DNA from: an uncultured Chloroflexia bacterium
Lineage (GTDB): Bacteria; Chloroflexota; Ktedonobacteria; Ktedonobacterales; JADMIN01
Reading direction: 5' to 3'
Assembly (NCBI GenBank): GCA_963718915.1
Contig: CAVRAI010000014.1
Location: 120,001-152,000 of the forward strand
Length of the DNA: 32,000 nt
In this document: positions 6,661-32,000 of the stretch, piece by piece
How the letters are laid out: each line of letters begins with the position of its first letter
Numbering within the stretch: position 1 is the stretch's first letter
Program-made: the position numbers and the translations under genes
Notes under the pieces: generated by a model
What the model saw: only the letters and a program-made list of their open reading frames with translations
Databases searched by the model: none
Told to the model about the DNA's origin: nothing

Positions 6661-6759
6661 CGGCGCGTCCAAGCCGCACATCTGCCAGCCAGTGCAATTG
6701 CCGGGCCAGCGTGCAGCGTATGTGCGTTAGCAGCCACTCGGCGCACTGCCGCTTTTCGG

Positions 6760-7725: not shown

Positions 7726-7747
7726 GCGTTTTACTCGTGAGAATCGT

Positions 7748-8458
7748 CTATTGCGCCACGGCGGCTGCCAGTGGCTCGGCGTACATGCGTGCGGAAAGTA
7801 TACCGCATCGCAGGATTTTGCGGAGCGACCAGCGCGTGCCCAGCACCTCAATGATCCGGCCGCGGTCATTCTCTGGGATGTTGCGCAGGCGGAGCAGGCT
7901 GACGTCCTTCACCTCACGGAGCTGTTCCAGCGGTGGCATATCTGGCGGCACAATCGCGGCGGTGGGGTCTGGCTGCGCATTCAACATGACGAGGTAGCGC
8001 GCCTGCGCTTCGGCGGCCTGGCGCAGCAGCTGGTTGGGTGGCGGCCCCGCACGTGTTGGCAGATTGCGCTGGTCGGAGCCGATGCGCTCGCCAAATTCGA
8101 GCAGGTCATCCAGTGCCCACTCCAGCAGCGCCAGCAGCCAATCGAGGTCTTCGTTGCTCACAGGGTCATTATCTGGCCCGAAGAAGGCGTCCATCATGTA
8201 AGGATATTGCCCGCCGACTTCTTGCGTCTCCATCAACTGCACGCGAAACGGCCCCGCCACGATGGGCGTATATTCGTCGTGGGAGCGCAGCCAGTCGTAG
8301 TAGGCGGGGATGCTTCGTTCGAGCAGTGACACCGCCACCCACACATCCGACGCGACGGCGAAGCAGCCGGGCAGATCAAGCAGTTGCGCGCGACACATGC
8401 CAGAAGCCAGTACCTCGATATAGGCGTCATGCTCAACATACTGGCGTCGCTGGATCAT
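7748..8458 (-). CDS. Hypothetical protein: N-terminal HicB/UPF0150-like fold, C-terminal DinB-like helical region (tentative)
   Basis: N-terminus AYIEVLASGMCRAQLLDLPGCFAVASDVWVAVSLLERSIPAYYDWL resembles the DLPGC motif of HicB-like proteins. C-terminal RWSLRKILRCGILSARMY resembles DinB-superfamily helices. Start at ATG 8458 chosen for GGAGA 7 nt upstream. Confidence 0.55.
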   Translation of the reverse strand: MIQRRQYVEHDAYIEVLASGMCRAQLLDLPGCFAVASDVWVAVSLLERSIPAYYDWLRSHDEYTPIVAGPFRVQLMETQEVGGQYPYMMDAFFGPDNDPVSNEDLDWLLALLEWALDDLLEFGERIGSDQRNLPTRAGPPPNQLLRQAAEAQARYLVMLNAQPDPTAAIVPPDMPPLEQLREVKDVSLLRLRNIPENDRGRIIEVLGTRWSLRKILRCGILSARMYAEPLAAAVAQ

Positions 8459-8573: not shown

Positions 8574-10557
<1,984 letters not shown>

Positions 10558-10702
10558 GTAGGGCGCTCCAGTCGGTTCCATCCCGATATGTGTTGACGAT
10601 TACTACGCGGTTCGCCCGATATTGGGCGCAATCAGGGCAATTCTCTTTATACAATTCTTTCGTGTCGAAAAGGAAATGGAAGCGCTGTGTGCATTCGGCC
10701 AT

Positions 10703-13397: not shown

Positions 13398-13973
13398 TCA
13401 CAGCCCAGCCATCACCGCCTTACAAATCGCCCGGAGCGTGGGGAAAACGCCCTCGCCAGTCACCGCGGCCGCGGGGAAAGCGGGCACACGCCGCCGATTG
13501 AGATACCGTTCCAGTGTAGCCTCAGGAACGGCGTTGGGCAAGTCGCGTTTGTTCCATTGCATCACGAAGGGGTACCGGCTCAGGTCATTGCCCATCCGTC
13601 GCATGTTGGTTTCCAGTTCGATCAGGCTCTGGAAGTTCTCTTCCAGTTTCTCGGGGGAGGAGTCGGCGACATAGACGATGCCATCAGCCCCGTTCAGCAC
13701 GGCGACGCGCGTCCGCTCATAGAGCACCTGGCCAGGAACCGTATAGAGGTGGAAGCGTACCCGGAAGCCATGGATGTCGCCCAGGTCGAGCGGCAGAAAG
13801 TCGAAGAAGAGCGTGCGCTCGTTCTCGGTGGCTATCGAGAGCAGATCCCCTCTGGCAGGCTGTGGCGCATGAGAAAAGATGTATTGCAGATTGGTCGTCT
13901 TGCCGCAGTAGCCGGTGCCATAGTAGACAATCTTGCACTGAATCTCGCGGCTGGCAACGTTGATGAGGGCCAT
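13398..13973 (-). CDS. mglA: MglA-type Ras-like small GTPase
   Basis: Close match to MglA hallmarks: INVASREIQCKIVYYGTGYCGKTTNLQYIF, TLFFDFLPLDLG, RFHLYTVPGQV, DGIVYVADS, QWNKRD. Confidence 0.9.
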   Translation of the reverse strand: MALINVASREIQCKIVYYGTGYCGKTTNLQYIFSHAPQPARGDLLSIATENERTLFFDFLPLDLGDIHGFRVRFHLYTVPGQVLYERTRVAVLNGADGIVYVADSSPEKLEENFQSLIELETNMRRMGNDLSRYPFVMQWNKRDLPNAVPEATLERYLNRRRVPAFPAAAVTGEGVFPTLRAICKAVMAGL

Positions 13974-13987
13974 GATCCGCCTAACGC

Positions 13988-14482
13988 CTAATCTCGGAAC
14001 AGGTAATCGATGGTATTCTCAACCGAGCTACGGAACTGGACATTGACGACCTGTTCCTTTGCCTCGGCGCTGCCCGAAAGCACGAGGTCGAGCACGCGCT
14101 CCAGCTCGTCGCTGGCTCGGCGCGCCAGCACCTTCACCAGCCCAACGTGCGTCTGCTTGTCGAAGGCCACCACCAGCAGCCAGTGCTCGCGAATCAGGCT
14201 GGTATAGATGCTCTCATGCACGCCCTGTTGCAGAATCCCGCGGAAGTCGCGCTCACCCAGAATCTCGGCCACCTGGCGTGACGACGAGAATGCGCCCGCC
14301 AGCAGCGCCCCCAGCGCGACAATATCGCGCTCGCTGGATTGCTGTTGCGCCGCGATCACCTGCCCGCTCTTATCCAGCAGCAACACATGGCTAGCGCTGC
14401 TCTCCTGAGCCAGCCTTTCCAGCAGGCGCGTAATGGCCTCCATCTCGCCCGGCGAAACGACGATATTGGTGAGTTGCTCCAT
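13988..14482 (-). CDS. mglB: MglB-like Roadblock/LC7 domain protein (probable GAP partner of MglA)
   Basis: Immediately upstream of mglA on the same strand. Roadblock pattern VLLLDKSGQVIAAQ...ALGALLAGAFSSSRQVAEILGE.DF..ILQQG....IYTSLI....LLVVAFD...HVGLVKV. ATG at 14482 preceded by GGAGGG; the track GTG at 14524 is less likely. Confidence 0.75.
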   Translation of the reverse strand: MEQLTNIVVSPGEMEAITRLLERLAQESSASHVLLLDKSGQVIAAQQQSSERDIVALGALLAGAFSSSRQVAEILGERDFRGILQQGVHESIYTSLIREHWLLVVAFDKQTHVGLVKVLARRASDELERVLDLVLSGSAEAKEQVVNVQFRSSVENTIDYLFRD

Positions 14483-14579
14483 GCCGCCCTCCACAACGCG
14501 CACCTGTTCTGGCCAGTCGGCCACGCTGGCCCACCGACGCGGTCAATCCTCATCACACGAGATCACATGAGATGGCGTC

Positions 14580-15935: not shown

Positions 15936-18900
15936 TCATTGCGCCAGGGCGAGGGTGTTGGCTTTGATAGCCTGATAGTTGGCATCCAGCGCCGGGCCGA
16001 GCGCCAGGAGTGTCGCGATGCGCTGGACCATCTCGCCGACGTAGCCGACTTCTTCGCTCCGCAGCGGGCGCTTGAGCTTCTCGATATGGCGGTAGTCGAG
16101 CCACTTCTTGATGACGGGATAGCCGCCGATGGTGAAGGCCCAGACCTCCGGCGGCACGTTGTTCCAGGAGCCGACATCGTTCCACCAGATGCGGCCAGGG
16201 CGCGCGGCCTGTCCCTCAGTGATCGGCGGCTCGTATCTGCCGATGCCGCCATAGCGGACGGTGACGCGCAGATCGTCCTCGCTGAACTGCCCGCCATCGC
16301 TGCGGGTGGGAACGCCGAGCGCGCGTACATCGCTCCGATGGAGTGAATGCCACATCCGGGCGCAGCAGATCGCCCACCGTGCGCCCCAGCGCGGCGCTGG
16401 CCTCCAGCAGATCGCGCGTCGCGGGGATGGGGATGCGCGGCCAATCTTGCAAGAGGCTGCCTTCATTCTCGGTGGCATACTGCGGCGAGTATGTTGCCGC
16501 CAAAATATGGTAAAAGAGCGCCGTCGCAATCGCCGCGCGTTCCGCTGGTTCGCCCGACGCGCCAAACGCCCGTAGCAGCGCATTCAGCACCTCTTCGCGC
16601 ACATTCAGTTGCGGGCCATCTTCGCCGAAGAGTGACCGCTGCTCCGGCTTCACGTACAGTGGGAAGTACTGCGAATATGGGTCTTGCAGATGCCTTGCCC
16701 CAAACTTATCCGTCAAGGTAGGCAGGTTTATGCTGCGGCGTCCTTTGGTAGATACCGAGATGTACAGATTACCAGAGAATACCTGCTGGTAAAACTCGCT
16801 ACGTTTCTCATCGAGCAATTTGGTCGTTGGTTCCCAATACAGCCATCGATCATCAAATGGTCTATACGCAACTCGAATGATGTGTTCGTTACGAAATCCG
16901 CTCGTCTGTAAGAAGTTCTCTTCGTGTTGCCGCGGCATCGTACCTACTAGCGTCTTGCATAAGAGTGGGAACATATTGTGACAGCTTCAGCATTGGAAGC
17001 CGCGGCATCGAAGTACTTACGCATCCGCTGCTCTAAGTGGCTCGCGGTCAATCGCAACCAGATCGGGATCACGTCCGGTCTGAAATCCTGGGTACTGATA
17101 CACGAATAGCTCATCGATGGCTGGCCACGTCTCGTAGGCGCGTTCGATGCTGCCGGGCTTGAATATGAAACGGCTTGCCTCCGCTGGCCGCAATGGTTGA
17201 TAGTTCCCATCCAGCGTATTTGAGGGCAACAGGGATTCCCTGGCGAGTGTCGTTCGCTTCTCGTGGCCCTGTCCCCACAAGTTGCGGTAGAAGATATGTC
17301 GCTTGCTGCACGGGGGCGCCTGACTTGAGCATAGTCGTGATGCCGGTTGCAACCGTGATGCCTACCGAACCTTGCCCACCAACATACTCGAATGCACTCC
17401 GGTCGGGCTTGCCATCTGGTCCCCGACTGCCGTGGAACATCCCGCCACCGTTGAGATTATCGATCCAGATGCAGTCAAATGCCGTAAGCATCCGTTCGCG
17501 CATGACAGGCAGCGAGAGGCTATCGAGCCAGGCGTTGTTGCTGATGAGGCTGACGATGCCGCGCCCGGTCGTCTCGGCAATCTGGCGCTCGGCCAGCCGG
17601 AAGAAGCGCACATAGAGATCATTGATGCCGCGCGCTTGCACGTCGAACCGCTCTTTCAGCCCGACGTAGTACGGCGCGATCAGATCGCGCTCCTCGTCCT
17701 CGGCCACGCCCGCCTGCGCGCGATAGGGCGGATTGCCCAGCACCACCAGAATCTTCGCCCGCTGCTTCACCTCGGCGGCGGACTCGGCCTCGTGCTGCAG
17801 GGCGGGATACTCCGGCAGGACAAGCTGTTTCGCCTCCTCGACGCTCCAACCCGTCAGCGAATTGGTGAGATAGACGCCCGCGCGCTGCTTCTGCCCAAGC
17901 GCCGCGCCCTGTTCGGCCAGCAGCGTCGCGATCTGCAAATGCGCCACCACGAACGGCGCGGGCAGAATCTCGAAGCCAAAGACGCGCTGTGTCGCCGCCT
18001 CGCGCAGCTGGAGCGCACGCATGGCCTCCGCGCCCGACGCGCGCAAGGTCTGATCGATGACGCGCAAGACCTCCAGCAGATAGCCGCCTGTTCCGGTCGC
18101 CGGATCGAGCACCACCACCCGGCTATCCGCCAGACCCAGCGGCAGGTGTAGCTCCTCGCGCAGCAGACGGTCTACCCGCGCCACCTGATACGTGATGATC
18201 TCGCGCGGGGTGTACCAGACGCCCAACTGCTCGCGCAGCGTTGGGTCGTACGCCTCCAGGAAAGGCTCATAGAAGTAGTTGACCGCGTCGCCATGCGCGA
18301 ACGACGCCGCGAATGGCTCCCATTGCGTCCGGCGCAGCGTCGCCTCCGCCCATTCGAGCGGCTTGCGGATATCCAGCATCTCCAGCTGGTTGCCGATGGC
18401 GATCCGCTCGAAGAGCTCGCGCATGACCGGCAATCGCAGATAATCTCCCGCCGCGCGCCACGAAAACTCCTCGCTGCCCGCATCATTGCGGCGAAAAACG
18501 ACCCAGGCGCTAAACAGCCCGTAGAAGAGCGTTTGTACAAGCGAGGAGCGGAAGAAGTGCTCGCCTTGCTCATCGGTGAAGTGGAGGCCGAGCGCCTCCT
18601 TGAGCGCGAGACGGAGCGCGGCAAGCTGGTCGGTGGGCTGGTGTTCGAGCCGCCGGAGCGCCTCGCGGGCGTACCGCGCCAAGGCCTCAGCCAGATCCTT
18701 GGGGCGGATGATCTCCGCGTCCCAGGTAAAGACCGTCACCAGAAAATCGGCGATGCCCTGCTCGTGCCTGCGATTCAGCGCCGCTGGCGAGGTATTCCAG
18801 AAGTCCGCCTCGCTCGTCGCCAGGGAGTAGCGCATGATCTCGGCAACGTTTCCGGCGCGTCCGGGAGATACCAGCGCGAACTCGCGCAGATTCGTCACCA

Positions 18901-19210
18901 GGCAGAGGCCATAGTGGTTCGCGTATTGCCGCACCTGGTCGCTGGCAATAATGTCATCCAGCGCATAGGAAGCGGGCTTTGCCTCGATGGCCGCGCGTGT
19001 ATCGTGGGTGGTGTCGGCCTGAAGCACATAATCCGGGTGGCCGGCGCCCCGACTGGCAACATCGTGAATCGCGACCACCCGGGGCGATAGGGTCACGCCC
19101 ACGGCATCAAACAGGGCGGCGAGCGCAGGGTAGTAACTGCGTTCGTCGGTGGCAAGCCCACTCACATGGATACGCCGCATCTGGCTGAGGAAATCGTTGA
19201 GCATCGACAT
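15936..19210 (-). pseudogene. Type IIG / type ISP-like restriction-modification fusion (PD-ExK-like N-terminus, gamma-class N6-adenine DNA methyltransferase, C-terminal target-recognition domain), disrupted by at least 4 frame changes
   Basis: Motif I VVLDPATGTGGYLLEVL and motif IV VLGNPPYRA in the 722-aa ORF. N-terminal GAGHPDYVLQ-x13-AIEAKP. The protein continues across ORFs 17017-17352, 16947-17210, 16216-16974 and 15936-16583 (IFYRNLWGQ..., LEQRMRKYFD..., VAYRPFDDRWLYWEP..., VWAFTIGGYPVIKKWLDYR). Frame order on the minus strand is 1, 0, 2, 0, 2. Confidence 0.8.
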
Positions 19211-19306
19211 ATGCAGAGTATACACGTAGTCTGGCTGGTTGCCAAGGGCGACGACAGTACATATGTCTGGCCGACGCATGCGATGGCAACAATCAGCCGT
19301 CGCGCC

Positions 19307-22458: not shown

Positions 22459-24096
22459 TTAGCCTAACCGCTCCAGCAGCTTCATCAGCGCGGGATAGTC
22501 CACCTTGGCGTTGTGGCGGCGATCCACCGGGATGCGCGGCACAACCCGGATGGCGTCGAGATGCGCCCAGTCCAGCGATTGCAGCGGGAAATCGAGTTCG
22601 CCGTCGTGTAGTGGATACGCTGGCTCGATCAGCAACAGCCGCTGCCCCCGCCACGCCACCATGGCGCTCCGCCGGATCGCTGGATGCGCCGAGACCGCCG
22701 CCTCGACGGCAAAGGGATAGAGCGTGCCGTGCGTATCTTCGATGCGGGCAAAGCAGCGACCCAGCAACCAGAGGCGCCCGTGCGCGTCCAGATAGCCCGC
22801 GTCGCCCGTCCGGTGCCAGATCGTAGCGCCGACCCGAATCTTCGTCTCGGCATCGCCGACTCCGCCGACATACCCGTTTCCGATGTGCGCGCCGCTCACC
22901 ACGATTTCGCCTGTCTGCCCCGCTGGCAGCGATGCGCGCTCGAACTCGTCAGGCGCATAGGGGCCGAGTGGCGTTCCCCAGCGGTCGGGCAGGATGCGCA
23001 GGGCAATTTCGGGTACCGGCGCGCCTGCCAACAACCCCGCGCCAGACTGCATTGCCGCGCTATCTCCCGGCAGGAAATCGTCGCGGGCGATATGCGCGAT
23101 GGGTTCAGCCTCGGTCGATCCGTAGATGGCGACGATTTGCGCCTGAGGCGCGCAGGCGTGTAGGGCGTTGAGCAGGCGCGGGAATACCGGCGCGCCGCCT
23201 GTATAGATTGCCTCCAGCGAGGGTAGCGTCATTCGCTGCCGCTGGCAGTACACGGCGATACGCTCCCAGAAGGCGGGCGAGGCTCCGGCGCGGCGTGGCT
23301 GGTAGCGCAGGATATCGGCTACCACTGGCGCGGGGTCGATCTCGCCCGGCTTGCGCAGATTGCCCGGTGGGATGAGGCTAGTCGTCCCGGAGGCAAGGTC
23401 GGCCAGCACGAAGACGGGCAGCGCGGTCATGCTGACCTCTCCGCCCGCGTCCGTAACGATATCGGCGGCGAAGTTGTTCCGCAGCGCGTCGTGCTGCGCC
23501 AGCAGGAAACGATGTGTCCGCAGCATCGCCTTGGGCTGGCCAGTGCTGCCGCTGGTGAAGGTGAGCAGCGCGGGCGCGTCGGGCGCGCAGGCGACGATCT
23601 CCTCGCGTGGCGCAAGCAGGTCGGCGCGGCTCCAGGGGGTGGCGCCGGGCATGAATCGCGCGCCGACGACGAATTTACGCGGGATACGGCCCACCGATGG
23701 CGCGAGCAGCCGCAGCAGGTGCGCGCGGACGCTGCCGATGAACGCGCGCGGATGGGCCAGTGCGCAGCAGCGCTCCACCTGCTCCATGCCCGCCGAGGGG
23801 TCCACGAACATGGCCGTCAGCCCCGAGCGGAAGATGGCGATCAGCGCGACATACAGCTCAAGCGACATCGGTTGAAGCACCAGCACGGTATCGCCGGGAC
23901 GCAGCCCATCCTGCCATAGCAGCGCCGCCGCCTGCCCCACACGCCGTTCCAGCGCCGCGAAGGTGGTGACGCGCGCCTGGCCGCGATGGGTGTCTATGAT
24001 GGCGGGCTGGTCGGGCCGCCGTAGCGCCTGTTCGCGCAGAATATCGGCAAGATTGCCAGTCACATATGTCGCGGATGCGGTAAATGCCGCGCTCAT
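22459..24096 (-). CDS. AMP-dependent synthetase/ligase (acyl-adenylate-forming, fatty-acyl-CoA-ligase-like)
   Basis: Adenylation core motifs LLTFTSGSTGQPKAM, IYGSTEAEP, GEIVVSG..IGNGY and WHRTGDAGYLD, with a C-terminal Lys in RRHNAKVDY. Its ATG overlaps the upstream stop (ATGA at 24093-24096). Confidence 0.88.
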   Translation of the reverse strand: MSAAFTASATYVTGNLADILREQALRRPDQPAIIDTHRGQARVTTFAALERRVGQAAALLWQDGLRPGDTVLVLQPMSLELYVALIAIFRSGLTAMFVDPSAGMEQVERCCALAHPRAFIGSVRAHLLRLLAPSVGRIPRKFVVGARFMPGATPWSRADLLAPREEIVACAPDAPALLTFTSGSTGQPKAMLRTHRFLLAQHDALRNNFAADIVTDAGGEVSMTALPVFVLADLASGTTSLIPPGNLRKPGEIDPAPVVADILRYQPRRAGASPAFWERIAVYCQRQRMTLPSLEAIYTGGAPVFPRLLNALHACAPQAQIVAIYGSTEAEPIAHIARDDFLPGDSAAMQSGAGLLAGAPVPEIALRILPDRWGTPLGPYAPDEFERASLPAGQTGEIVVSGAHIGNGYVGGVGDAETKIRVGATIWHRTGDAGYLDAHGRLWLLGRCFARIEDTHGTLYPFAVEAAVSAHPAIRRSAMVAWRGQRLLLIEPAYPLHDGELDFPLQSLDWAHLDAIRVVPRIPVDRRHNAKVDYPALMKLLERLG

Positions 24097-25118
24097 AATG
24101 TGCCTCCCAGTTCCTTCGCATAAAGCGTGTAGCGCCGGATGACGCGCCCGTGGTAGACATCACTGAGGCGGCGCGAGACGTTGTCCTCGCGTATCAGCGC
24201 GTGGATGGCGCGGGTGTAGCCGAGCGCGCGGCCAGCCGCAATCGCCCGCGCGGCCAGCAGAATCGCCAGCCCCTGCCGCTGGTAGTCTGGCAGGACGGCG
24301 GTCGTCTTGGCGATGCCAGTGTTAATCAACTCGCCGCGCCGCGCCTGAAGCCAGTCGGGCACGACCAGCAGAAAGCCGACGGCGCGCTCATCTTTCTCGG
24401 CAATCTGCACCAGTTCTGGCACGAGCAACGACTCCAGCGGGCGATACTGCGCGACGAACGCCTCCTCGTCGATGGGGCTGGCAAGCAGGCTCTCCGCAAA
24501 GCCAGCGGCCACGACCGGGTACACACCGCGGAGGTCGTTCTCGAACGCGTCGGGATCGAGCGGGCGAACGCGCACACCTGCCGCCCGCATCTGCCGTTCG
24601 ATCTCAGGAATGCGTGGGTCGGTGGCTTCGAGGTGATCCTGCACGGCGGAGTAATACTGCGCCAGCGCCGCGAAGCCGTTGCTAGTGAAGTGCGCGGGCC
24701 AGCTCGCGGGATTGCTGGGTTCGAGGAAGAACGGCGGTTCGGCGCCTGGCTCGGTCACCAGCCGGTAGTGGTTATAGGTGCTGCCATCCATCGGGCCAAT
24801 GGCAATGGTGCGGCCCGCCTGGCGCAGCCGGTCGCAGGCATGTTGCAACAGCGCCTCGGCCAACGTATCGTCGGCGGCATAGTGACCAATCAGTCCGACA
24901 CGATGCCCTTGGTAGGCGGGCGTCGCGGTCCACCAGAGGGAGCATCGGGCAATCGCGCCCTCAGCGTCCTCAAGGAGCCAGTGCTCGTCGGCGCCGGACG
25001 AAGCCAGCGTCGCCGTGTCGAGCGGCGTTCCATCGGGCACGGCGCAGAAGCGCGCCATCTCAGCCGTGTTGGTGACTGAGGTGATTTGTATTGTCTGTAT
25101 CGTGCGTTGCGGTGGCAT
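24093..25118 (-). CDS. Two-domain GNAT-family N-acyltransferase
   Basis: C-terminal half has the GNAT core AVLPDYQRQGLAILLAARAIAAGRALGY. The N-terminal half has a second degenerate GNAT-like unit (IGHYAADD..AEALLQHACDRLRQAG). The start at 25118 lacks an SD, so it is uncertain. Confidence 0.72.
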   Translation of the reverse strand: MPPQRTIQTIQITSVTNTAEMARFCAVPDGTPLDTATLASSGADEHWLLEDAEGAIARCSLWWTATPAYQGHRVGLIGHYAADDTLAEALLQHACDRLRQAGRTIAIGPMDGSTYNHYRLVTEPGAEPPFFLEPSNPASWPAHFTSNGFAALAQYYSAVQDHLEATDPRIPEIERQMRAAGVRVRPLDPDAFENDLRGVYPVVAAGFAESLLASPIDEEAFVAQYRPLESLLVPELVQIAEKDERAVGFLLVVPDWLQARRGELINTGIAKTTAVLPDYQRQGLAILLAARAIAAGRALGYTRAIHALIREDNVSRRLSDVYHGRVIRRYTLYAKELGGTL

Positions 25119-25146
25119 GTGTTAACCAATCTATGTCTGCAAGTAA

Positions 25147-25331
25147 GAGGCGCGGGCGGTTAAAACCGCGCCTGAACGGCCTCGCTGCGCTCCGCCACAA
25201 AACCCGCCTGCGCGGGTTTCACTGCACCACCTCGCAACCGTTGATCCAGGCGAGGCACGATCTGATGAGTCCGCGCAGGCGGACTTCGTGGCCGCAGGCC
25301 GTAGAGGCGCGGTTTTAACCGCCCGCGCCTC
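25147..25331. repeat. 185-bp palindromic MITE/REPIN-like element (family 2) with perfect 26-bp terminal inverted repeats
   Basis: GAGGCGCGGGCGGTTAAAACCGCGCC at 25147-25172 is the exact reverse complement of 25306-25331. Internal hairpins AAACCCGC-CTGC-GCGGGTTT, CCTCGC..GCGAGG and AGTCCGC-GCAG-GCGGACT. Intergenic, between the kinase-like and GNAT genes. Confidence 0.85.
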
Positions 25332-25389
25332 GATCACCCGATTATGGTGTGAAACACTGTAATGCCGCGAACCTGAATTACCGCACCCG

Positions 25390-26175
25390 CTACAATCTTG
25401 CCCGTTGCGGCTGGCCCCACGGAATCGTGATCGCGCCGAGAATTGCCGCGATCAACAGCACGCTCACCAGCAGCGCGGTCAGGTCCGACGCCAGCAGCGA
25501 CCGGAGAAAGATAAAGCCGGTGAGCGGGATGAGCAGGTTATCCAGCCCGCGCCACGAGATCGCCTCGACCAGCGTCAGCAGCAGCGCCAGCGTCAGCGCG
25601 ACTCCTGGAACCGCCACGTTGGTCGTCGTCCCGGCTAGCAGCAGCGCGCCGGATGTGCCGAAGAACGCCACCGTGAAGAATGCCAGCGAGCCTTCGAGAC
25701 TCTTATGCCCGTCGCGGGTACCATATTGCAGCGAGCCAAACCGTGAGCCGACGATGGCCGCCGCCGGATCGGCCAGCGTCAGCAGCAGCAGCGGCACGAT
25801 GTAGAGCAGCGGCTGGTTATGCGCCAGCACAAACAGCAGGCAGGCGCTCAATGGGAAATAGACCTCGCCTAACGAGGGACGTGTTACGCCATACAGCACG
25901 TCGCCCAGACCGTTGCGCAGGCGGCGCACATGCTTGAGGGCGAGCAGCGTGGGAATGGTGATTGCCGTGAGCAGCAGCACTGGCCAGACATCGCCGAACA
26001 TCCATGGGAGCGCCAGTGTCGTCAGGCCGCCGCCCAGGTGGAAGAGCTTGCGCGACGTTTCCGGCGCGAGGTTGCGGGCATGCTGGTAGATATGGATCGC
26101 GACCATCAGCAGTATGAGCGTGCTGAGTTCGAGCGCCATGCCCAGCCAGGGATTGAGCGGCAGCGGCGTAATCAT
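25390..26175 (-). CDS. Polyprenol/phytol/dolichol-kinase-like membrane protein (CTP-dependent kinase / cytidylyltransferase superfamily)
   Basis: Multi-TM protein with SRKLFHLGGG and DPAAAIVGSRFG...GHKSLEGSLAFF, matching the VTE5/SEC59/DGK1-type pattern (RK..H; D..A..vG...G; KS.EGS). ATGA overlap with the upstream stop at 26172-26175. Confidence 0.72.
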   Translation of the reverse strand: MITPLPLNPWLGMALELSTLILLMVAIHIYQHARNLAPETSRKLFHLGGGLTTLALPWMFGDVWPVLLLTAITIPTLLALKHVRRLRNGLGDVLYGVTRPSLGEVYFPLSACLLFVLAHNQPLLYIVPLLLLTLADPAAAIVGSRFGSLQYGTRDGHKSLEGSLAFFTVAFFGTSGALLLAGTTTNVAVPGVALTLALLLTLVEAISWRGLDNLLIPLTGFIFLRSLLASDLTALLVSVLLIAAILGAITIPWGQPQRARL

Positions 26176-27506
26176 GTGACGATCTCCTCGATAACGAGTG
26201 CGCTATAAAAGAAGGCTTTATCCTGACGATGCAGCTGCTCGGCCAGCTCTGGCAGCGGCCAGAGGCGATGCGCCAGCTCGTCGAGATAGCCGCGCGGCGC
26301 AAGCATATTCCAGTAGAGCAGCCGCCCGCCAGGTCGCCCGACATCGGCCAGTCGCGCCAGCAGCCGGGCATACTGCTCGTGCGAGACGTACTCGAACACA
26401 TCGCTCAGGTTGAAGCGGTCGATGCTGTGCGCCGCCGCCGTCGCCAGATACTCTTCCAGCGATTGCCGCCGCCATTCCAACCGGTCCAGGTTGGCGCGGA
26501 TGGCGTCGAAGTTCTCGGGACGCAGCGCGTATGGCAGCGCGGTCAGGTGCGCGCCGGTCAGAATCCACTGCACGTAGGGATTCTCCGCCGGGTTGAGTTC
26601 GGTCAGGGCATATCTGGTGCGCTGGAGCAGGCGCTCGGCCACACCCCCCTCGACATAGGTGAAGAACTCCGGGTCGCGCCCAAGCCGCCCCATCAGCGCG
26701 CGCGAGAAGAAGAGCCGGAAGAGCAGCCGCCAGCGCCAGGTGTCCCATTCGCGGGCGTAGAACGCCTGACGAGCGGCAGGCGCGCCACCAGCCAGCAGTT
26801 GGGTCACCTTCGCCCGGCTCTCGACCAGCGGCAGAATGCGCTCCCTGAAGAGCCGGAAATAACGCTCGAACTTGCCCGCGCCGCCGATACCCGCGCGTAT
26901 CGCATCCAGATGCGCGTCCCAGAAGCGGCGCTCATCGGACGACAGGCGCCCGCGGCAGCGGAGATACAGTTCCTCGCGGCGCTCGCTCGGGCGTGACCCG
27001 ATCAACTCCAGCAATTCAGGATGCTCCAACTCGCGATAGGCGGCGACCCGGAGCGCCAGGCAGGCCAACTGCGCGTCGCTGACATCAATTGCGAGCACAT
27101 GACCGGGCGACTGCGCCAGCAGGGCCAGCGTGTTGTCCCCGGCCGAGGCAATCGAGAGGCAGCTATCGCCCGGCTGGATCGCCAGCCCGCCGAGCAGCAC
27201 GTCGGCGTCCTCCCAGCACTGCGCGTAGCGGATGGCGGAGAAGTCGGCGCGGGCGGTGATAGTCGAGTCATGGGTGGGTGATATTTGCGAGGGTGCGCTC
27301 GTCGGCAGGCGGCTAAAGCCGCGCCTAAGGGTCTCACTCGCGTTCGGCCGCAAAGCCTGCCTTCGCAGGCTGGCAGAATCATGCCCAGGCGTATTGCCTG
27401 TGACGGCGAGAGCGGATGCCAGGCTGCTCACGGTCTGGAGGCCGCGCAGGCGGCCTTTGCGGCGGGACGCCCTTAGGCGCGGCTTTAGCCGCCAGCTACT
27501 GGACAT
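26172..27506 (-). CDS. DUF3419 / BtaA-like protein (SAM:diacylglycerol 3-amino-3-carboxypropyl transferase family), N-terminal ~65 aa encoded by a repeat element
   Basis: Family core begins at IRYAQCWEDADVLLGGL, then SIASAGDNTLALL, GKFERYFRLFR, NPYVQWILTG and FNLSDVFEYVS. ATG at 27506 has a strong SD (GAGGGAGG, 6-nt spacer) and overlaps the upstream stop. There is no ATG/GTG/TTG between the repeat and the conserved core. Confidence 0.8.
   Translation of the reverse strand: MSSSWRLKPRLRASRRKGRLRGLQTVSSLASALAVTGNTPGHDSASLRRQALRPNASETLRRGFSRLPTSAPSQISPTHDSTITARADFSAIRYAQCWEDADVLLGGLAIQPGDSCLSIASAGDNTLALLAQSPGHVLAIDVSDAQLACLALRVAAYRELEHPELLELIGSRPSERREELYLRCRGRLSSDERRFWDAHLDAIRAGIGGAGKFERYFRLFRERILPLVESRAKVTQLLAGGAPAARQAFYAREWDTWRWRLLFRLFFSRALMGRLGRDPEFFTYVEGGVAERLLQRTRYALTELNPAENPYVQWILTGAHLTALPYALRPENFDAIRANLDRLEWRRQSLEEYLATAAAHSIDRFNLSDVFEYVSHEQYARLLARLADVGRPGGRLLYWNMLAPRGYLDELAHRLWPLPELAEQLHRQDKAFFYSALVIEEIVT
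27308..27493. repeat. 186-bp palindromic MITE/REPIN-like element (family 2) with perfect 24-bp terminal inverted repeats, inside the 5' end of the BtaA-like ORF
   Basis: GGCGGCTAAAGCCGCGCCTAAGGG at 27308-27331 is the exact reverse complement of 27470-27493. Its core GGCGG.TAAA.CCGCGCCT.A is shared with the element at 25147-25331. Internal hairpins AGCCTGC-CTTC-GCAGGCT and AGGCCGC-GCAG-GCGGCCT. Confidence 0.85.
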
Positions 27507-30162
27507 GGCTGGCCTCCCTCGGTGTCACCGCGATGGGCGACTCGGCTGGCTCGGCGATGCGTGTGACGACGCCGGACGTGCCATTGACCTCGATCAGATC
27601 GCCGGTCGTGAGCCAGGAAGTGACGCCCGCGACCGAGACGACCGCCGGGATGCCCAGCTCGCGCGCGACGATGGCCGAATGCGAGAGGACGCTGCCGCGT
27701 TCGACTACGACCCCCGCCGCGCCCGCGAAGAGCAGAATCCAGCCGGGGTCGGTACGCTCCGCCACCAGAATCTCGCCCGCGCGTACCTCGGCGGCCTTCG
27801 GGTCGGTCACCACGCGCGCCCGTCCGCGCACCACGCCAGGACAGCAGCCGATGCCAGTCAGCCGGTCCGTCGTATCACCCGTGTGTGGCTCATCTGCGAT
27901 GGGAATGAGCCGCGCCGTCAGCGGGCCGACGGTGACCAGCCCGCGTGTCTCGAAGCGGTCGGGCGGTGGCTCGTCGGCGCGCCAGCGAGCAAACTCCGCC
28001 TGACGGATGGCCACCAGCCCCTTGAGGTTGGTCGTTGTCGCTGTGCCTGTCACCAGCCCCAGCGCTTCCTCAACTTCCACATAGAAGATGTCGCGCGGAT
28101 TTTCCAGCAGGCCCAGCGCGTAGAAGCGGCGGCCAAGCTCGACGAAGATGCGGCGCACTCGGCCAAAGACGCGCGTGCGCTCGAAGCGCAGGTTCTCACG
28201 GTCGCGCACCCGCGCCCGCGCCCGTGCCAGCACGAAGTTGAACGCCGCCCGCCGCAAGGGATGCCACGCCAGTCTCCGTCGCACCGTGCGCTCCGCCAGC
28301 GCGCGCTTCGACTGGTCCGGCGCATCGTTTGTGGGCGCTTCCGTTGGTGCGCTATCCTCCGACGCGAAACGCTGGGCAAGGTGGCCTATGGCGCGTAGCA
28401 GCGGCGTGGGATCGTCGCGCAGCGTTGGGCTTTCGAGCTTCAACTCCTCCAGACAGCGGTCGGCGAACTTTGCCAGATACGCCTGATACTCCTCATCGAA
28501 CGCCGGGTAGCGCACGATCTCGCGCTGGATGGGGTCTGGTGTTCCGGTGCGCAGTATGTCGGCCAATTCGGGGAACCGCGCGGCCAGCATCGCGAGCGAG
28601 CGCACCCGCCGCGCTGGCTCGGCGCTGATGATGCCGCCCTGCCCGCTAACGAGGTCGTTCTGCAGCGTGCCCGCCTTGTCGTCGCACCAGGCGATACACA
28701 GCCTGCGCAGCAGGCCATAGAAGAGCATGGCGAAGAGGTCGTTGACCAGCGGCGCGTCCCAGTGGGCCAGCAGCCTGCCCTCCAGGTCGCGATAATGGGC
28801 GACCAGCTCATCGGGCCGCATCACTTCAAGAGGAATCTTGCCAGGCGCCAGCGCCTCATCCAGTCGGGCGTAGAAGCGCTCGATATCGCGCGGCAGTTGT
28901 CGCTCATGGCGCGCGAGACTGGCCACCGCGCGTAGCAGCTTCAGCGCGTCCATCAGGCGCATACGGCCGCCGTTCGCGGCCAGACGCGCCGCCAGCGCGG
29001 GTGGTAGCTCCTCCTTGACGCCCATCATCTGCTCCATGAAGCGGCGGTTAGCGCTGAAGCCGGGGGCCAGCGCCAGCAGGTCGTACCAGCTAAAGAGGCT
29101 GTAGTAGATACGCCCGCGCACCAGTCCAATCATGCGGCGGAAGGTATCGGCGTGCGCAGCGATTTCTGGCTCGGAGACGCCGAGCAGGCGGCACAGTTCG
29201 CGGTAGACCTCCTCGTAGGCATGGCGGGCGAAGGAGAAGGTGAGCGGAGTCGTGACGCCGCCATAGCTTTCGGCGATGTTGCTGTTATCCCAGAGGGCGT
29301 ACGCGCCGTCGGGATCGCGCATCGTGGCCAGCGTCGTGATAGGCCGTGACTGCAAGAGGAAGAGATCGCCGCCCGCAATCGCCCACTCGCTATCCTGTGG
29401 GACGCCGAAGTGCTGCTCGCAGCGCCGCGCCAGCGCTGCAACCGCCCGTAGTTGCTCGTCGTCGAGCGTCTGTTGTCGTTGGGTCCGTTGGACGCGCTCG
29501 ATGGCGCCGAGGCGATCCACCGTCGCGGTCTCGCCCTCATTCGCGCCAGAGACGAGCGCCTCGCCCAGTCCCACAATATCGCTGACCACCGCGACGCCGC
29601 GCCGCCCGCTGGCTGGATCCGCGCTGAAGGCGACGCCAGATATGTCCGCCGCCACCATCCGCTGGATGAGCACGGCGGGCGCGGGCGAAACGGCATCCAG
29701 TCCATGCGTGCGGCGATACGCCAGGATGCGTGCGCTGAAGCCCGAGCGCCAGACATCGGCCACGCGCGCGGCCACATCCTCCGGCGCGACGTTCAGGTAG
29801 GAGGAGAGTTGCCCGGCGAAGGAGTGCGCGCTGCCATCTTCATCGCTAGCGGATGAGCGTACCGCGAAGAGCTGTCCATCAGGCCCAAGAGCCGCAACCG
29901 CCTGGGCTAATTCAGCGGCCACCACATTGTCCGGCGTCAGGGGTGCCAGCGCGGCGGTGACGGCGGCCTCATCGCCCGACTCACAGGCGGCGGCCAGTCG
30001 TTCGCGGTCGGCGGCGCCGAGGCTATCATCGAACGCGGCGGGATCGAGCGCGAACCAGGCGGGAACCGGAAAGCCCGCCTGTTGGAGGCTCGCCAGCGCG
30101 GCAGCCTTCCCGCCGATCCGGCTGGCAGTGGCGTCTGCTGTTGGCTGGATGATGTAGCGCAT
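27496..30162 (-). CDS. PEP-utilising-enzyme family dikinase, rifampicin-phosphotransferase-like architecture (N-terminal ATP-grasp PPDK_N domain, central helical domain, C-terminal phosphohistidine swivel domain; no PEP/pyruvate TIM barrel)
   Basis: N-terminus IGGKAAALASLQQAGFPVPAWFAL ... VRSSASDEDG..SFAGQ ... PQDSEWAI. C-terminus GCCPGVVRGRARVV...GEILVAERTDPGW..LF..AAGVVVERGSVLSHSAIVARELGIPAVV. ATG at 30162 preceded by GGAGG; the track GTG at 30177 is rejected. Confidence 0.85.
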   Translation of the reverse strand: MRYIIQPTADATASRIGGKAAALASLQQAGFPVPAWFALDPAAFDDSLGAADRERLAAACESGDEAAVTAALAPLTPDNVVAAELAQAVAALGPDGQLFAVRSSASDEDGSAHSFAGQLSSYLNVAPEDVAARVADVWRSGFSARILAYRRTHGLDAVSPAPAVLIQRMVAADISGVAFSADPASGRRGVAVVSDIVGLGEALVSGANEGETATVDRLGAIERVQRTQRQQTLDDEQLRAVAALARRCEQHFGVPQDSEWAIAGGDLFLLQSRPITTLATMRDPDGAYALWDNSNIAESYGGVTTPLTFSFARHAYEEVYRELCRLLGVSEPEIAAHADTFRRMIGLVRGRIYYSLFSWYDLLALAPGFSANRRFMEQMMGVKEELPPALAARLAANGGRMRLMDALKLLRAVASLARHERQLPRDIERFYARLDEALAPGKIPLEVMRPDELVAHYRDLEGRLLAHWDAPLVNDLFAMLFYGLLRRLCIAWCDDKAGTLQNDLVSGQGGIISAEPARRVRSLAMLAARFPELADILRTGTPDPIQREIVRYPAFDEEYQAYLAKFADRCLEELKLESPTLRDDPTPLLRAIGHLAQRFASEDSAPTEAPTNDAPDQSKRALAERTVRRRLAWHPLRRAAFNFVLARARARVRDRENLRFERTRVFGRVRRIFVELGRRFYALGLLENPRDIFYVEVEEALGLVTGTATTTNLKGLVAIRQAEFARWRADEPPPDRFETRGLVTVGPLTARLIPIADEPHTGDTTDRLTGIGCCPGVVRGRARVVTDPKAAEVRAGEILVAERTDPGWILLFAGAAGVVVERGSVLSHSAIVARELGIPAVVSVAGVTSWLTTGDLIEVNGTSGVVTRIAEPAESPIAVTPREASHVQ

Positions 30163-30179
30163 CGGTGAAACCTCCACAG

Positions 30180-30209
30180 GTCAGGCGAACGTCAGGCGAA
30201 CGTCAGGCG
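30180..30209. repeat. 11-bp tandem repeat GTCAGGCGAAC x2.7 spanning the stop codon of the UbiA-family gene
   Basis: GTCAGGCGAAC GTCAGGCGAAC GTCAGGCG read directly. The TGA stop (30192-30194, minus strand) lies in the second copy. Confidence 0.8.
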
Positions 30210-31178
30210 TAGCGCCAGTGGAATCGCGCCGAGGCTCAGATAGAGCGCCAGCGTCCAGAGGCCAGAGACCAGCTCAATCGGTTTGCCACTGCCTGGCGCG
30301 GGGCGCCGCAGGAAGCGCAATCCTATCACGACCGCCAGCGCGGCCACAGCTACGTAGGCGACGATCTCCCACGGCGTCTCGATCTGGAAAGTGGCCAGCG
30401 CCGCCCCAATCGCCGTAACACCGAGCGCAATCAGCCAGACGAGCACGGCGCGCTGGCGTCCCCAGAGCGCGCTATAGGTTTCCACACCATATTCTTCGTC
30501 TTCAGGCGCGCGAATCTTGCGCCCAACTTCGAGAATGAAGCCATTGCAGAAGCTGACAAAGAGCAGAATGCCGAGGCCGAGCGGCGGCGCGACATTGGCG
30601 ACGCGCCAGTCGCAGGCGGTGCCGTAGAGGTCGATCAGCGGCAGGATCAGCATGTGGCTCCACATGTAAGCTGTCGGATGCGCCTTGAGCCAGTCGCGCA
30701 CGAAAAACTCGCGGCACATCAGCCCCAGGTACGCCCACGTCACCAGCAGGAACGGCAGCAGCGCCGGAGAGAGCCAGAACGCCAGCAGCGTCTGCACGCC
30801 GCCCGCCACCACCGCGACAATGGCCAGTTCGCGTAACGTAATGAGGCCGCGCGGCACCGGACGATACGGGCGATAGCGGGCGTCCTCGTCGGCGTCTTTG
30901 AACTCGTCAGCGATCCGCATCTCCAGGAAGAAGAGCAGCGCCGTGCAGAAGGCGACCACAATCGCTTTGAGCGACGGCAGCGCCACGACACCACGCGCCA
31001 GCATTGAGAAGGTGAGCGTGCAGAAGCTGAACGCGGCGATCAACGGGATATGAGTAGAAAGCGGGAAGCGCTCGCGCTGATAAATCCACCAGCGCGCCAG
31101 TAGCGATGGGCGCTGCTTCGCGCGTAGCGTGGTAGCCGCAACGTCATTCTTTGCCTGAATGGGCGCGTCGTTAGGCAT
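30192..31178 (-). CDS. UbiA-family integral-membrane prenyltransferase-like protein
   Basis: About 8-9 predicted TM helices. Asp-rich loop EMRIADEFKDADEDARYRPYRPVPRG, matching the UbiA first-motif region (D..D...D followed by R.....RP.P.G). ATG at 31178 overlaps the HMGR-like stop (ATGCCTAA). The track start at 31268 is rejected. Confidence 0.72.
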   Translation of the reverse strand: MPNDAPIQAKNDVAATTLRAKQRPSLLARWWIYQRERFPLSTHIPLIAAFSFCTLTFSMLARGVVALPSLKAIVVAFCTALLFFLEMRIADEFKDADEDARYRPYRPVPRGLITLRELAIVAVVAGGVQTLLAFWLSPALLPFLLVTWAYLGLMCREFFVRDWLKAHPTAYMWSHMLILPLIDLYGTACDWRVANVAPPLGLGILLFVSFCNGFILEVGRKIRAPEDEEYGVETYSALWGRQRAVLVWLIALGVTAIGAALATFQIETPWEIVAYVAVAALAVVIGLRFLRRPAPGSGKPIELVSGLWTLALYLSLGAIPLALRLTFA

Positions 31179-32000
31179 CGCCGCCGCCTTCCTGGTGATT
31201 CGGGCGCCGACCATCGCGCGCCAGCTTGCGGTGCGCGCTCGCGAAGTGGCCCGCGCAGAGCGCTCCAATCAGCGAAAGCTCGCCCGCGAGGCAGAGTCCG
31301 GCGCAGACCTCCGCCAGCGCGGCGGCGTGTCCCGACCCGGCAAGACCCATTAGTTCCAGGCAGGCGTGCTGGCCTGGCAGCCCCGTGCCTCCGCCAACCG
31401 TGCCGACGATGATGCTGGGCAGCGTCACCGCGGCGTAGAGGTCGCCTGCCGCAGTCACTTCCATCCGGGTGACGCCCATCGCCGACTCCGCGACGCAGGC
31501 GACATCCTGCCCAGTGGCCAGGTAGAGCGCGGCCAGCCCGTTGGCGTAGTGGCCCTGCGCGCCGAGCGTGCCGCTGAGGACGCCGCCGAGCGCGCCCATG
31601 CGGAAGTAGTCGGCCATCCGCGCTGGCGTTGTGCGCAAGCGCCGCCGCACCAACTCCTCTGGAATGGTCACCTCCGCGCTGACCCGCCGCCCGCGCACGC
31701 CCACGAACGAGCGGGCGCTGGCCTTCTTGTCGCCGGAGTAGTTCGCCTCCAGGAACCAGTAGTCCGGCTGGATGGGCGTCTCGGCGAGAATATGCGCGCA
31801 GATTGCCTCGGTCGCCAGTGTCACCATATTCTGCCCGGCGGCGTCGCCCGTGGTGAAGTCGAGATGTAGATAGACGTGGTTGCCCTCGATCACCGCGCGC
31901 ATCTCTTTCAACCGCCCATGGCTGGTGGTGGTGGCGACGCAGCCGTTGAAGACGAGCCGCTGCGCCAGCGCCCATTCGGCGAATTGCGCCGCCTCGCGCA
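31171..32000 (-). CDS. Class-I HMG-CoA reductase-like protein (C-terminal ~275 aa; 5' end lies beyond the window)
   Basis: TTGDAAGQNMV (DAMGxNM region), ATGQDVACVAESAMGVTRME, LPSIIVGTVGGGTGLPGQHACLELMG and LAGELSLIGALCAGHFASAHRKLAR all match the class-I HMGR catalytic domain. The frame stays open upstream to position 32000 (…REAAQFAEWALAQRLVFNGCVATTTSHGRLKEMRAV…). Confidence 0.85.
   Translation of the reverse strand, partial: REAAQFAEWALAQRLVFNGCVATTTSHGRLKEMRAVIEGNHVYLHLDFTTGDAAGQNMVTLATEAICAHILAETPIQPDYWFLEANYSGDKKASARSFVGVRGRRVSAEVTIPEELVRRRLRTTPARMADYFRMGALGGVLSGTLGAQGHYANGLAALYLATGQDVACVAESAMGVTRMEVTAAGDLYAAVTLPSIIVGTVGGGTGLPGQHACLELMGLAGSGHAAALAEVCAGLCLAGELSLIGALCAGHFASAHRKLARDGRRPNHQEGGGDA

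Follow-up and report, generated by a model that had tools for sequence, protein, structure and literature searches.

FcrA is a class-I homologue of HMG-CoA reductase (HMGR; HMG, 3-hydroxy-3-methylglutaryl) described from "Ca. Promineifilum breve" (Chloroflexi) and Natronomonas pharaonis (ISME J 2025, PMC11948995). Experiments showed that this enzyme reduces C4-C18 acyl-CoA to the alcohol but does not reduce HMG-CoA; its diagnostic changes are Glu for Ser684, loss of the conserved Lys735 in favour of small residues and a bulky residue (Trp) for Leu862 (PMC11948995). Most bacterial "class-I HMGRs" were assigned to FcrA in the same work, being without a mevalonate pathway and often placed in non-wax-ester pathways, and fcrA frequently has no co-occurring wax synthase (PMC11948995). 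The present study analysed a gene cluster with an HMGR-like reductase on the minus strand of a 32,000-nucleotide stretch, called the window here, of contig CAVRAI010000014.1 (positions 120,001 to 152,000; assembly GCA_963718915.1) from an uncultured Chloroflexia bacterium of the order Ktedonobacterales. The cluster encodes this reductase, a UbiA-type transferase, an Rph-type dikinase, a DUF3419 protein, a polytopic membrane protein resembling phytol kinases, a tandem GNAT and an AMP-ligase. It is read here as one co-functional, horizontally mobile cassette for a fatty-alcohol-based lipid or amphiphile and not as a mevalonate/isoprenoid operon, a plausible reading that is put forward tentatively; the wider statement, that the genes form a co-functional lipid-type pathway starting from an acyl thioester that is reduced to an alcohol, is quite probable.

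The reductase of the cluster resembles FcrA in the class-I HMGR fold with its catalytic residues, in the change of Ser684 to Glu, in the loss of Lys735 and in genomic contexts without a mevalonate pathway. Both would act downstream of a FadD-type ligase, and both occur naturally fused to carrier and other domains. The cassette reductase differs in having Met at Lys735, Leu in the column aligned to 862 and a varying His866 column, and while the partner of FcrA is the wax synthase WS/DGAT, the partners here are UbiA, the dikinase, DUF3419, the kinase and GNAT. Neither the FcrA paper nor its supplement mentions UbiA, DUF3419 or PEP-synthase-like partners (PMC11948995).

Phytol salvage (VTE5, VTE6, HPT/ChlG) follows the logic proposed for the cassette, in which a lipid alcohol is converted to the monophosphate, then to the diphosphate, and is passed to a UbiA-family transferase; the membrane kinase of the cassette also carries a VTE5-like motif set. 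The cassette lacks VTE6/DUF92, which leaves the dikinase of the phosphoenolpyruvate (PEP) synthase type as the only candidate for the second step, and its alcohol would probably come from acyl-CoA reduction, whereas that of phytol salvage comes from chlorophyll. Archaeal digeranylgeranylglyceryl phosphate (DGGGP) synthase and chlorophyll synthase, which form C-O bonds to a lipid or carboxylate acceptor, are closest to the cassette UbiA among solved or curated proteins. The similarity is very weak, however, the acidic motifs are altered in the cassette protein, and neither geranylgeranylglyceryl phosphate (GGGP) synthase nor glycerol-1-phosphate dehydrogenase accompanies it. RPH and PigC/RedH share with the cassette dikinase the three-part architecture and the invariant catalytic His, but the latter scores far below the equivalog cut-offs and is embedded in a lipid-type operon.

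BtaA moves the aminocarboxypropyl group of S-adenosylmethionine (SAM) onto a lipid hydroxyl. In the BtaA/BtaB route to diacylglyceryl-trimethylhomoserine, as in the cassette, a full-length DUF3419 protein is present, BtaA being the only characterised member of the family; the cassette differs in having a tandem GNAT (a formyltransferase in the variant locus L206) in place of the N-methyltransferase BtaB. Besides UbiA, the ebo genes encode a TatD-like hydrolase along with a sugar-phosphate cyclase, a phosphatase and a protein with a TIM barrel. The ebo cluster is likewise a compact six-gene UbiA cassette with a lipid-linked product and a wide horizontal spread, occurring in many bacteria and in eustigmatophyte plastids (PMC5133447); only the UbiA family is common to the two.

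Conservation and distribution of the cassette

A profile of the Rph-like protein retrieved 80 genomic loci, and eight proteins were compared with these by tblastn; presence was counted only at loci with enough flanking sequence. This comparison revealed a six-gene core (UbiA, Rph-type dikinase, DUF3419, membrane kinase, tandem GNAT and AMP-ligase) whose members kept the same order on a single strand in 40 of 52 loci. UbiA was present in 68 of 72 loci and adjoined the dikinase in 68 of 72, while DUF3419 was found in 53, GNAT in 52, the ligase in 49 and the membrane protein in 45 of 56 loci each. The reductase was present in 43 of 67. The first-pass annotation of the window, made from its letters alone, had proposed a pathway on the strength of this gene combination, which thus proves strongly conserved; the unit is not exactly seven genes, as had been described, but six genes plus an optional reductase. 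The further remark that no characterised pathway with this combination was known agrees with the literature searches, in which no paper describing it was found. Papers on the lipocone and on chlorosphaerolactylate share some terms with the cassette and are unrelated to it.

Cassette genes, as full or partial sets, occur in at least 11 phyla. The hosts include Chloroflexota, Planctomycetota, Verrucomicrobiota, Nitrospirota, Deinococcota and Armatimonadota, Cyanobacteriota (Calothrix, Oscillatoria, Leptolyngbya, Microcoleus), Acidobacteriota (Blastocatellia, Holophagaceae), Desulfobacterota (Geobacter, Desulfosarcina variabilis), Pseudomonadota, with the Gammaproteobacteria Methylomonas aurea and Chromatiales, and Bacillota (Brevibacillus laterosporus). 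On the plasmid NZ_CP121116.1 of Roseinatronobacter sp. S2 the six-gene core was found with all junctions overlapping, and RefSeq names its products "UbiA family", "PEP/pyruvate-binding", "DUF3419 family", "hypothetical" (twice) and "AMP-binding". The identity of cassette proteins across phyla was 40-68%. Their pairwise-distance matrices were correlated (r = 0.65-0.90, lower for UbiA), as one would predict for genes that travel together.

The accessory genes differed by lineage. P450s were found in seven loci, ABC or MacB exporters also occurred, thioesterases or lipases lay beside several loci, and a class-III aminotransferase and a lipase were seen in Blastocatellia. A radical-SAM/SPASM enzyme (~385 aa) and a 343-aa polytopic membrane protein without Pfam match lay upstream of UbiA in ten loci, namely the cyanobacterial L017, L021, L023, L025, L031, L042, L050, L071 and L075 and the verrucomicrobial L058; all of them except L058 also had a 143-aa membrane protein. 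The nine cyanobacterial loci were without the reductase, which L058 has, and those of these cyanobacterial cassettes that have downstream genes contained no phytol-kinase-like gene.

Two metagenome-assembled genomes carry cassette proteins that resemble those of other groups. In L036, labelled Heliobacteriaceae, such a protein was 78% identical to Blastocatellia loci, and in L048, labelled Bifidobacterium, it fell among loci of Verrucomicrobia and Planctomycetes; either the contigs were mis-binned or the genes were transferred recently.

Active site of the reductase

The reductase gene runs on the minus strand from 31171 to beyond 32000 and is cut by the window end, so that the C-terminal 275 aa lie inside. 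The protein matched Pfam HMG-CoA_red with 266 bits. Alignment to human HMGR showed that Glu559, Arg590, Asp690-Lys691-Lys692, His752, Asn755, Asp767 and His866 were kept, and that Glu replaced Ser684, Met replaced Lys735 and DAAGQN stood for DAMGMN. In human HMGR structures, the free carboxylate of HMG is bound by Ser684 together with Lys735. The same pattern was seen among the cassette homologues, with Glu at Ser684 in 43/43, Met at Lys735 in 42/43 and DA[AS]GQN in 43/43; the His866 column was variable (H 19, E 11, D 7, Q 4; n=43), with His in the window protein. When 1.84 billion representative proteins were searched exhaustively with HMMER, 2412 matches were obtained, and among the best 150 of these, 82 combined Glu at Ser684 with Gln at the Met657 position, while the canonical M-M-S-K-H pattern was present in only 6.

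No mevalonate-pathway gene was found within 7.6 kb upstream of the reductase in L001 or in a JGI contig, both from close relatives, and no HMG-CoA synthase or mevalonate kinase formed a conserved family in the 80 loci. The reductase is therefore not the tail of a mevalonate operon, a case that the first-pass annotation had left to be checked upstream; an alpha/beta-hydrolase gene occupies that place in the relatives. A mevalonate operon was ruled out on these absent genes together with the substituted carboxylate-binding residues.

From its active-site residues the protein looks like a putative fatty-acyl-CoA to alcohol reductase of the FcrA type and not an HMG-CoA reductase. The Glu at Ser684 and the loss of Lys735 make a fatty carbon skeleton more likely than a mevalonate-derived one. 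The earlier suggestion that the HMGR-like enzyme had been repurposed was thus correct, with the FcrA signature present and no mevalonate genes nearby, but the isoprenoid/HMG framing around it does not hold, as FcrA reduces fatty acyl-CoA and not HMG-CoA (PMC11948995).

Domain fusions and rearranged variants

Several multidomain proteins occur among the reductase homologues that bear the signature; cluster look-ups of the fusion proteins gave generic HMG-CoA-reductase names from JGI and one partial Coriobacteriia match. An AMP-binding(-AMP-binding_C-PP-binding)-reductase fusion was found in P0387, P0413, P0391 and P0455, a reductase-DUF3419 fusion in P0365 and a triple DUF3419-reductase-APH kinase fusion in P0461. 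The reductase was joined to an EcKL/APH kinase in P0421 and P0437, and weakly so in P0428, and to ACBP (acyl-CoA-binding protein) in P0367.

Some of these proteins lie in rearranged loci. L205 comprises the triple fusion, UbiA and the Rph-like protein; L206 comprises the ligase-reductase fusion, a formyltransferase, UbiA, the Rph-like protein, an MMPL transporter and DUF3419. In L209/L210 were found a ligase, DUF3419, the reductase-kinase, a UbiA homologue, the Rph-like protein, an FtsX permease, a GNAT homologue and an ABC ATPase, with acyl-CoA thioesterases flanking both sides; the L209 UbiA homologue had 30% identity to that of the window (E = 2e-24), and the GNAT homologue matched with E = 2e-9.

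The fusions and re-shuffled variants indicate that the ligase would feed the reductase, that a kinase would act beside the reductase and that DUF3419 belongs to the same pathway, and they suggest that an amine is capped by acetyl or formyl and that the product is exported in some lineages. A soluble APH/EcKL domain would then functionally replace, elsewhere, the membrane phytol-kinase-like protein of the window. The natural fusions strengthen an alternative idea of the earlier note, namely that a carboxylic acid is turned into an alcohol and then into a phosphorylated donor for UbiA. On two metagenome contigs (L207, L208) the reductase-EcKL/APH protein P0421 was accompanied by two thymidylate-kinase-like genes, an NTP_transf_5 gene and a HAD hydrolase gene, and this different context points to the reductase-kinase pair as a module in wider use.

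Membrane kinase-like protein and dikinase

The polytopic membrane protein (25390-26175, minus, 261 aa) had no Pfam or NCBIfam match, and its homologues bear the name 'phytol kinase' at JGI. Alignment of 70 sequences revealed the invariant motifs PE..RK..H.G.G, LADxxAAxxGxxxG, KSxEGS and GLDNLxxP, which we take to be the phytol/dolichol kinase (VTE5/DolK) pattern. The AlphaFold2 (AF2) model had a pLDDT of 91, and the only probable fold match that Foldseek found in the PDB was the CDP-diacylglycerol synthase 4q2g (CdsA). Judged by the motifs, the source names and this weak fold match, the protein resembles the phytol/dolichol kinases, a family of lipid-alcohol kinases dependent on cytidine triphosphate (CTP). 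The 261-aa form was seen in Ktedonobacterales and Blastocatellia; in most phyla the protein has 440-450 aa, with an extra, poorly conserved C-terminal membrane half. A second kinase of the VTE6/DUF92 type was considered for this half (~190 aa) and rejected, as it is poorly conserved and has no kinase motif; a DUF92 match in one long form was weak (E = 0.0097).

The Rph-like dikinase gene (27496-30162, minus) encodes 888 aa from its ATG, identical to the database protein P0001, and has an alternative GTG start at 30177. Pfam PPDK_N and PEP-utilizers domains were found, with Rph_4th precomputed for the homologues. The protein has the Rph/PigC architecture of an ATP-grasp domain, a central substrate domain and a swivel phosphohistidine domain, and His828 with its surrounding motif is invariant. 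The best NCBIfam model was NF004881 ("PEP synthase" subfamily), at 741 against a cut-off of 883; the equivalog models were much further from their cut-offs, with 271 against 999 for Rph (NF041857), 302 against 1300 for PigC and 354 against 1350 for RedH. The nearest structure was the Listeria RPH.

Transferases and ligase

The UbiA gene (30192-31178, minus, 328 aa) scored 53.1 bits in Pfam against a cut-off of 34.2. Two motifs, R.ADEFKDxxxD and ExGRKxRxPxxEExGVxTY, were conserved in 65 homologues. The acidic motifs are thus variant, with DEFKDxxxD in one and EE replacing DxxxD in the other. The nearest solved relatives, chlorophyll synthase and DGGGP synthase, matched very weakly (E = 0.007-0.08), and the protein belongs to a divergent subfamily of the UbiA superfamily.

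The DUF3419 (BtaA-family) SAM-dependent transferase is encoded at 26172-27506 (minus, 444 aa), with the conserved core starting from ~27251. It matched Pfam over its full length (E = 1.3e-68, profile positions 4-382/385), and the motifs RYAQxWEDAD, SIASAGDN, FEYxS, YWN and DKAFFY were found in 66 homologues. No methyltransferase family that could serve as a BtaB partner was conserved in the 80 loci, and a classical BtaA/BtaB operon was rejected for want of this partner. DUF3419 genes on Rhizobium and Shinella plasmids, with 27-29% identity, lie in another context of CoF synthetase, MBL hydrolase and oxidoreductase genes and were of no help as BtaA comparators; the example L084 (Rhizobium sp. 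plasmid pMK-2, CP041205.1 99102-106016; 27% identity) shares an operon with the adenylate-forming CoF synthetase, an MBL-fold hydrolase and an NAD(P) oxidoreductase. The L084 arrangement suggests that, outside the betaine-lipid pathway, DUF3419 proteins repeatedly have adenylating enzymes as neighbours.

The GNAT gene (24093-25118, minus) encodes 341 aa, and each of the 34 homologues tested had Acetyltransf_1 in its C-terminal half. Its AF2 model (pLDDT 91.7) revealed a tandem GNAT. The Foldseek matches (E = 1e-13 to 1e-15) were 7q3a (MAB_4324, template-modelling (TM) score 0.63-0.65) and the glucosamine N-acetyltransferase 5kf1 (TM 0.60), followed by the mycothiol synthase MshD 1ozp (TM 0.55) and the clavulanate tandem GNAT 2wpw. 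The closest folds are acetyl-CoA-dependent N-acetyltransferases of small amines, and the modelled protein is probably an N-acetyltransferase for an amine. These folds, together with the formyltransferase that replaces GNAT in L206, favour N-capping over long-chain N-acylation.

The AMP-ligase of the ANL family (22459-24096, minus, 545 aa) matched Pfam AMP-binding with 173 bits. Its closest NCBIfam model was the 'fatty acid CoA ligase family protein' PRK09274 (NF006754), at 382 against a cut-off of 478, and OleC models gave 200-215 bits; TFTSGSTGxPK, YGSTEAEP, WHRTGD and RHNAK are conserved motifs.

Proposed pathway and alternative explanations

Family membership, conservation, fusions and active-site signatures were observed; from these we infer as follows what the substrates and the product are, in which order the steps run and that the dikinase serves as second kinase. 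The AMP-ligase would convert a carboxylic acid, probably a fatty acid, to an acyl thioester, which the FcrA-type HMGR-fold reductase would reduce with four electrons to a primary alcohol. The alcohol would be phosphorylated by the membrane phytol-kinase-like enzyme, or in other variants by the APH/EcKL kinase fused to the reductase, and the alkyl phosphate would be raised to the alkyl diphosphate by the Rph-type dikinase that lies almost always beside UbiA. The PPDK half-reaction phosphorylates phosphate, and the proposed dikinase step is chemically analogous. The UbiA-type transferase may then displace the diphosphate and form a C-O bond between the chain and an acceptor, DUF3419 may add the 3-amino-3-carboxypropyl group of SAM in the manner of BtaA, the tandem GNAT would cap the resulting amine, and in some lineages the product would be exported.

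Several points weigh against this scheme. The diphosphates that UbiA enzymes normally ionise are allylic, one on a saturated alkyl chain would be a poor donor, and we know of no PEP-synthase-type enzyme that makes an alkyl diphosphate. The fold match of the kinase is weak, as its Foldseek probability of 0.94 comes with a TM of only 0.32 and E = 0.07. The reductase is missing from 24 of 67 cassettes, about a third, which means that the alcohol step is dispensable or is supplied elsewhere. Leu stood in the column aligned to Leu862 in 36/43 homologues, in a register that is not anchored by an FcrA reference sequence; with this Leu and the variable His866 column, the substrate of the reductase may differ from that of FcrA. 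DUF3419 and a kinase are both fused to the reductase, for which the linear order gives no reason. An order in which DUF3419 acts first, followed by the cap, by ligase and reductase on the amino-acid carboxylate and by the kinases, would fit the data equally well.

Other explanations of the conserved gene set were weighed on the same evidence. UbiA could O-prenylate a fatty-alcohol or homoserine-type acceptor with prenyl diphosphates derived from the methylerythritol phosphate (MEP) pathway, the kinases acting on acceptor hydroxyls, to give a mixed fatty/isoprenoid amino lipid. Allylic prenyl donors are normal chemistry for the UbiA family, the nearest solved relatives (chlorophyll synthase, DGGGP synthase) O-prenylate, the sources name the membrane kinase 'phytol kinase', and a polyprenyl synthase lies elsewhere in the window, at 5582-6646. 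This explanation is somewhat unlikely, however, as it leaves both the kinase-reductase fusion and the dikinase-UbiA adjacency (68/72) unexplained and no cassette of any phylum includes a prenyl-diphosphate synthase.

The two integral membrane enzymes of the core do not suit a small secreted specialised metabolite made by PigC/RedH-like, ATP-dependent condensation of a reductase-derived aldehyde or alcohol with a SAM-derived amino acid unit. That product, which is unlikely, would be in keeping with the scores of the dikinase (RedH 354 and PigC 302 above Rph 271 bits), with the patchy distribution that includes plasmids and with the P450s and ABC/MacB exporters adjoining several cassettes. The ACBP fusion and the FcrA signature nevertheless indicate long acyl chains, the MMPL transporter of L206 is of the lipid type, and the identity of the proteins across phyla, at 50-65%, is unusually high for secondary metabolism.

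The leading suggestion of the first-pass annotation, an isoprenoid lipid or ether lipid of the archaeal type whose homoserine head group is N-acylated, was weighed with a genuine HMG-CoA reductase as the source of mevalonate or isoprenoid units. In its favour are the HMG-CoA_red domain with its catalytic residues, the weak match of UbiA to geranylgeranylglycerol-phosphate transferase models and the membership of DUF3419 in the BtaA family. It is now very improbable, since the residues that bind the HMG carboxylate are substituted across the cassette homologues and FcrA, with Ser684 changed to Glu and Lys735 lost, is inactive on HMG-CoA (PMC11948995). The 80 loci and the upstream regions of the relatives offer no HMG-CoA synthase or mevalonate kinase family either, and the reductase-bearing cassette was found in cyanobacteria, Geobacter and Methylomonas. 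These organisms rely on the MEP pathway. Chance adjacency or separate pathways, with overlaps due to a compact genome only, could appeal to the 271-nt gap without Shine-Dalgarno before GNAT and to the absence of promoter or terminator signals above chance, but is barely conceivable and effectively refuted by colinearity in 40/52 loci and at least 11 phyla, by fusions of the same families and by re-shuffled variants that keep the function set.

The fatty-alcohol cassette preferred here has a more specific and bolder form, in which a hitherto unknown bacterial ether-lipid route would take an FcrA-type fatty alcohol to the alkyl diphosphate (CTP kinase and dikinase) and on to UbiA, with an N-acetylated homoserine-type head group. 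This form is doubtful and quite unlikely as it stands; if true, it would mean archaeal-style ether-bond chemistry on fatty chains and a new lipid class in at least 11 phyla. Desulfosarcina-type sulfate reducers, Acidobacteria subdivision 4 and Planctomycetes are known for unexplained non-isoprenoid ether lipids, and the cassette is a testable candidate for those of some host groups. The same six to seven enzymes, kept together in order or fused across many phyla under generic RefSeq names, represent a conserved lipid or metabolite pathway of environmental bacteria that is absent from textbooks. The cassette also supplies a concrete non-wax-ester context for the recently discovered FcrA reductases and suggests new candidate activities for PEP-synthase/Rph-type dikinases and divergent UbiA proteins. 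Cultured carriers are Brevibacillus laterosporus and Methylomonas aurea, both with seven-gene versions, Desulfosarcina variabilis and Calothrix, along with the Roseinatronobacter plasmid.

Organisation of the operon in the window

Every junction listed in the first-pass annotation was verified by direct reading, namely seven co-directional genes with four overlaps and one wide gap of about 270 bp that holds a palindrome, and the translational coupling is present as it was described. The reductase and UbiA genes meet in ATGCCTAA at 31171-31178. UbiA and Rph are separated by a 29-nt gap with a GGAGG Shine-Dalgarno within it. The Rph and DUF3419 genes overlap by 11 nt, with the Rph stop TAG at 27496-27498, the DUF3419 ATG at 27506 and GGAGG 7 nt upstream. 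ATGA overlaps were found at 26172-26175 and 24093-24096, with GAGGAG or GGGAGG ahead of each. The gap between the membrane protein and GNAT measures 271 nt (25119-25389) and houses a 185-nt palindrome. As for the family calls, six of the seven scored above Pfam cut-offs, and the polyprenol-kinase-like call is the one that relies on motifs, source names and a weak fold match only.

The GNAT start has no Shine-Dalgarno, and a second internal transcript start is therefore possible. About 30 nt lying 5' of the GNAT ATG (window 25119-25146; GCAGACATAGATTGGTTAACACATG, with TAGATT) are kept in L001, L002 and L004, and this stretch may serve the GNAT-ligase pair as an internal promoter or as a short-leader start. 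A promoter and terminator scan gave no signal above chance.

The upstream context was read from close relatives with 82-88% identical proteins (L001 and the JGI contig). In these an eighth gene for a membrane-anchored alpha/beta-hydrolase lies upstream of the reductase, about 10 nt apart, and starts the operon there; beyond it are unrelated sigma factor, BBE oxidase, peptidase and glyoxalase genes. The operon thus extends past the window end. Downstream, the DNA_alkylation, Metallophos and MgtC genes were syntenic within Ktedonobacterales only and are outside the unit.

Palindromic elements

The element in the gap between the kinase and GNAT genes (25147-25331, 185 nt) is a palindromic repeat resembling repetitive extragenic palindromes (REP) or miniature inverted-repeat transposable elements (MITE). 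It has 36-nt arms with 94% complementarity and folds at -143.9 kcal/mol (z = -12). A second, diverged copy that is homologous to it was found at 27305-27496, where it lies in frame within the stretch that extends the DUF3419 open reading frame (ORF) at its 5' end, with 27-nt arms of 96% complementarity and a nested inverted repeat. Within the 32 kb, this ~190-nt element occurs in two copies, at two operon junctions only. The arm motif was located at the same two sites in relatives (L001 14919-14936; L002 12807-12824 and 14716-14733). It was also found in at least 120 metagenome stretches and was near the cassette in 1 of 80 read back, and this distribution, mostly away from the cassette, indicates a dispersed REP/MITE-like family. 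The only Rfam matches were sub-threshold CRISPR-DR28 matches to the palindrome arms.

The N-terminal extension of DUF3419 (~85 aa) is formed by the second palindromic copy, and the 11-nt Rph/DUF3419 overlap depends on this extension. In the window and in L001, L002 and L004 the sequence of the extension differs but is open only in the gene frame, the chance of which was estimated at ~0.13 per sequence; the extension is thus probably translated. The 27305-27496 copy looks like an in-frame translated insertion reminiscent of the Rickettsia palindromic elements, and the translational coupling of Rph and DUF3419 seems to be kept by selection.

Other genes of the window

On the minus strand at 4794-7869, UbiE/MenG methyltransferase, polyprenyl synthetase and radical-SAM genes resemble quinone biosynthesis; they are 15 kb away from the cassette and do not share its conservation. 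UvrB (8574-10581, minus) is divided into two overlapping ORFs, one for helicase/UvrB_inter (9727-10581) and one for the C-terminal part (8574-9842), a frameshift that is genuine or was introduced by the assembly. A Type ISP restriction-modification enzyme (15936-19279, minus) appears broken into at least three ORFs, with N6_Mtase/Eco57I at 17111-19279 and Type_ISP_C at 16216-16974 and 15936-16583, and is probably a pseudogene. At 13398-14524 (minus) a small Arf/Ras-like GTPase stands beside a Roadblock/LC7 protein, forming an MglA/MglB-like pair.

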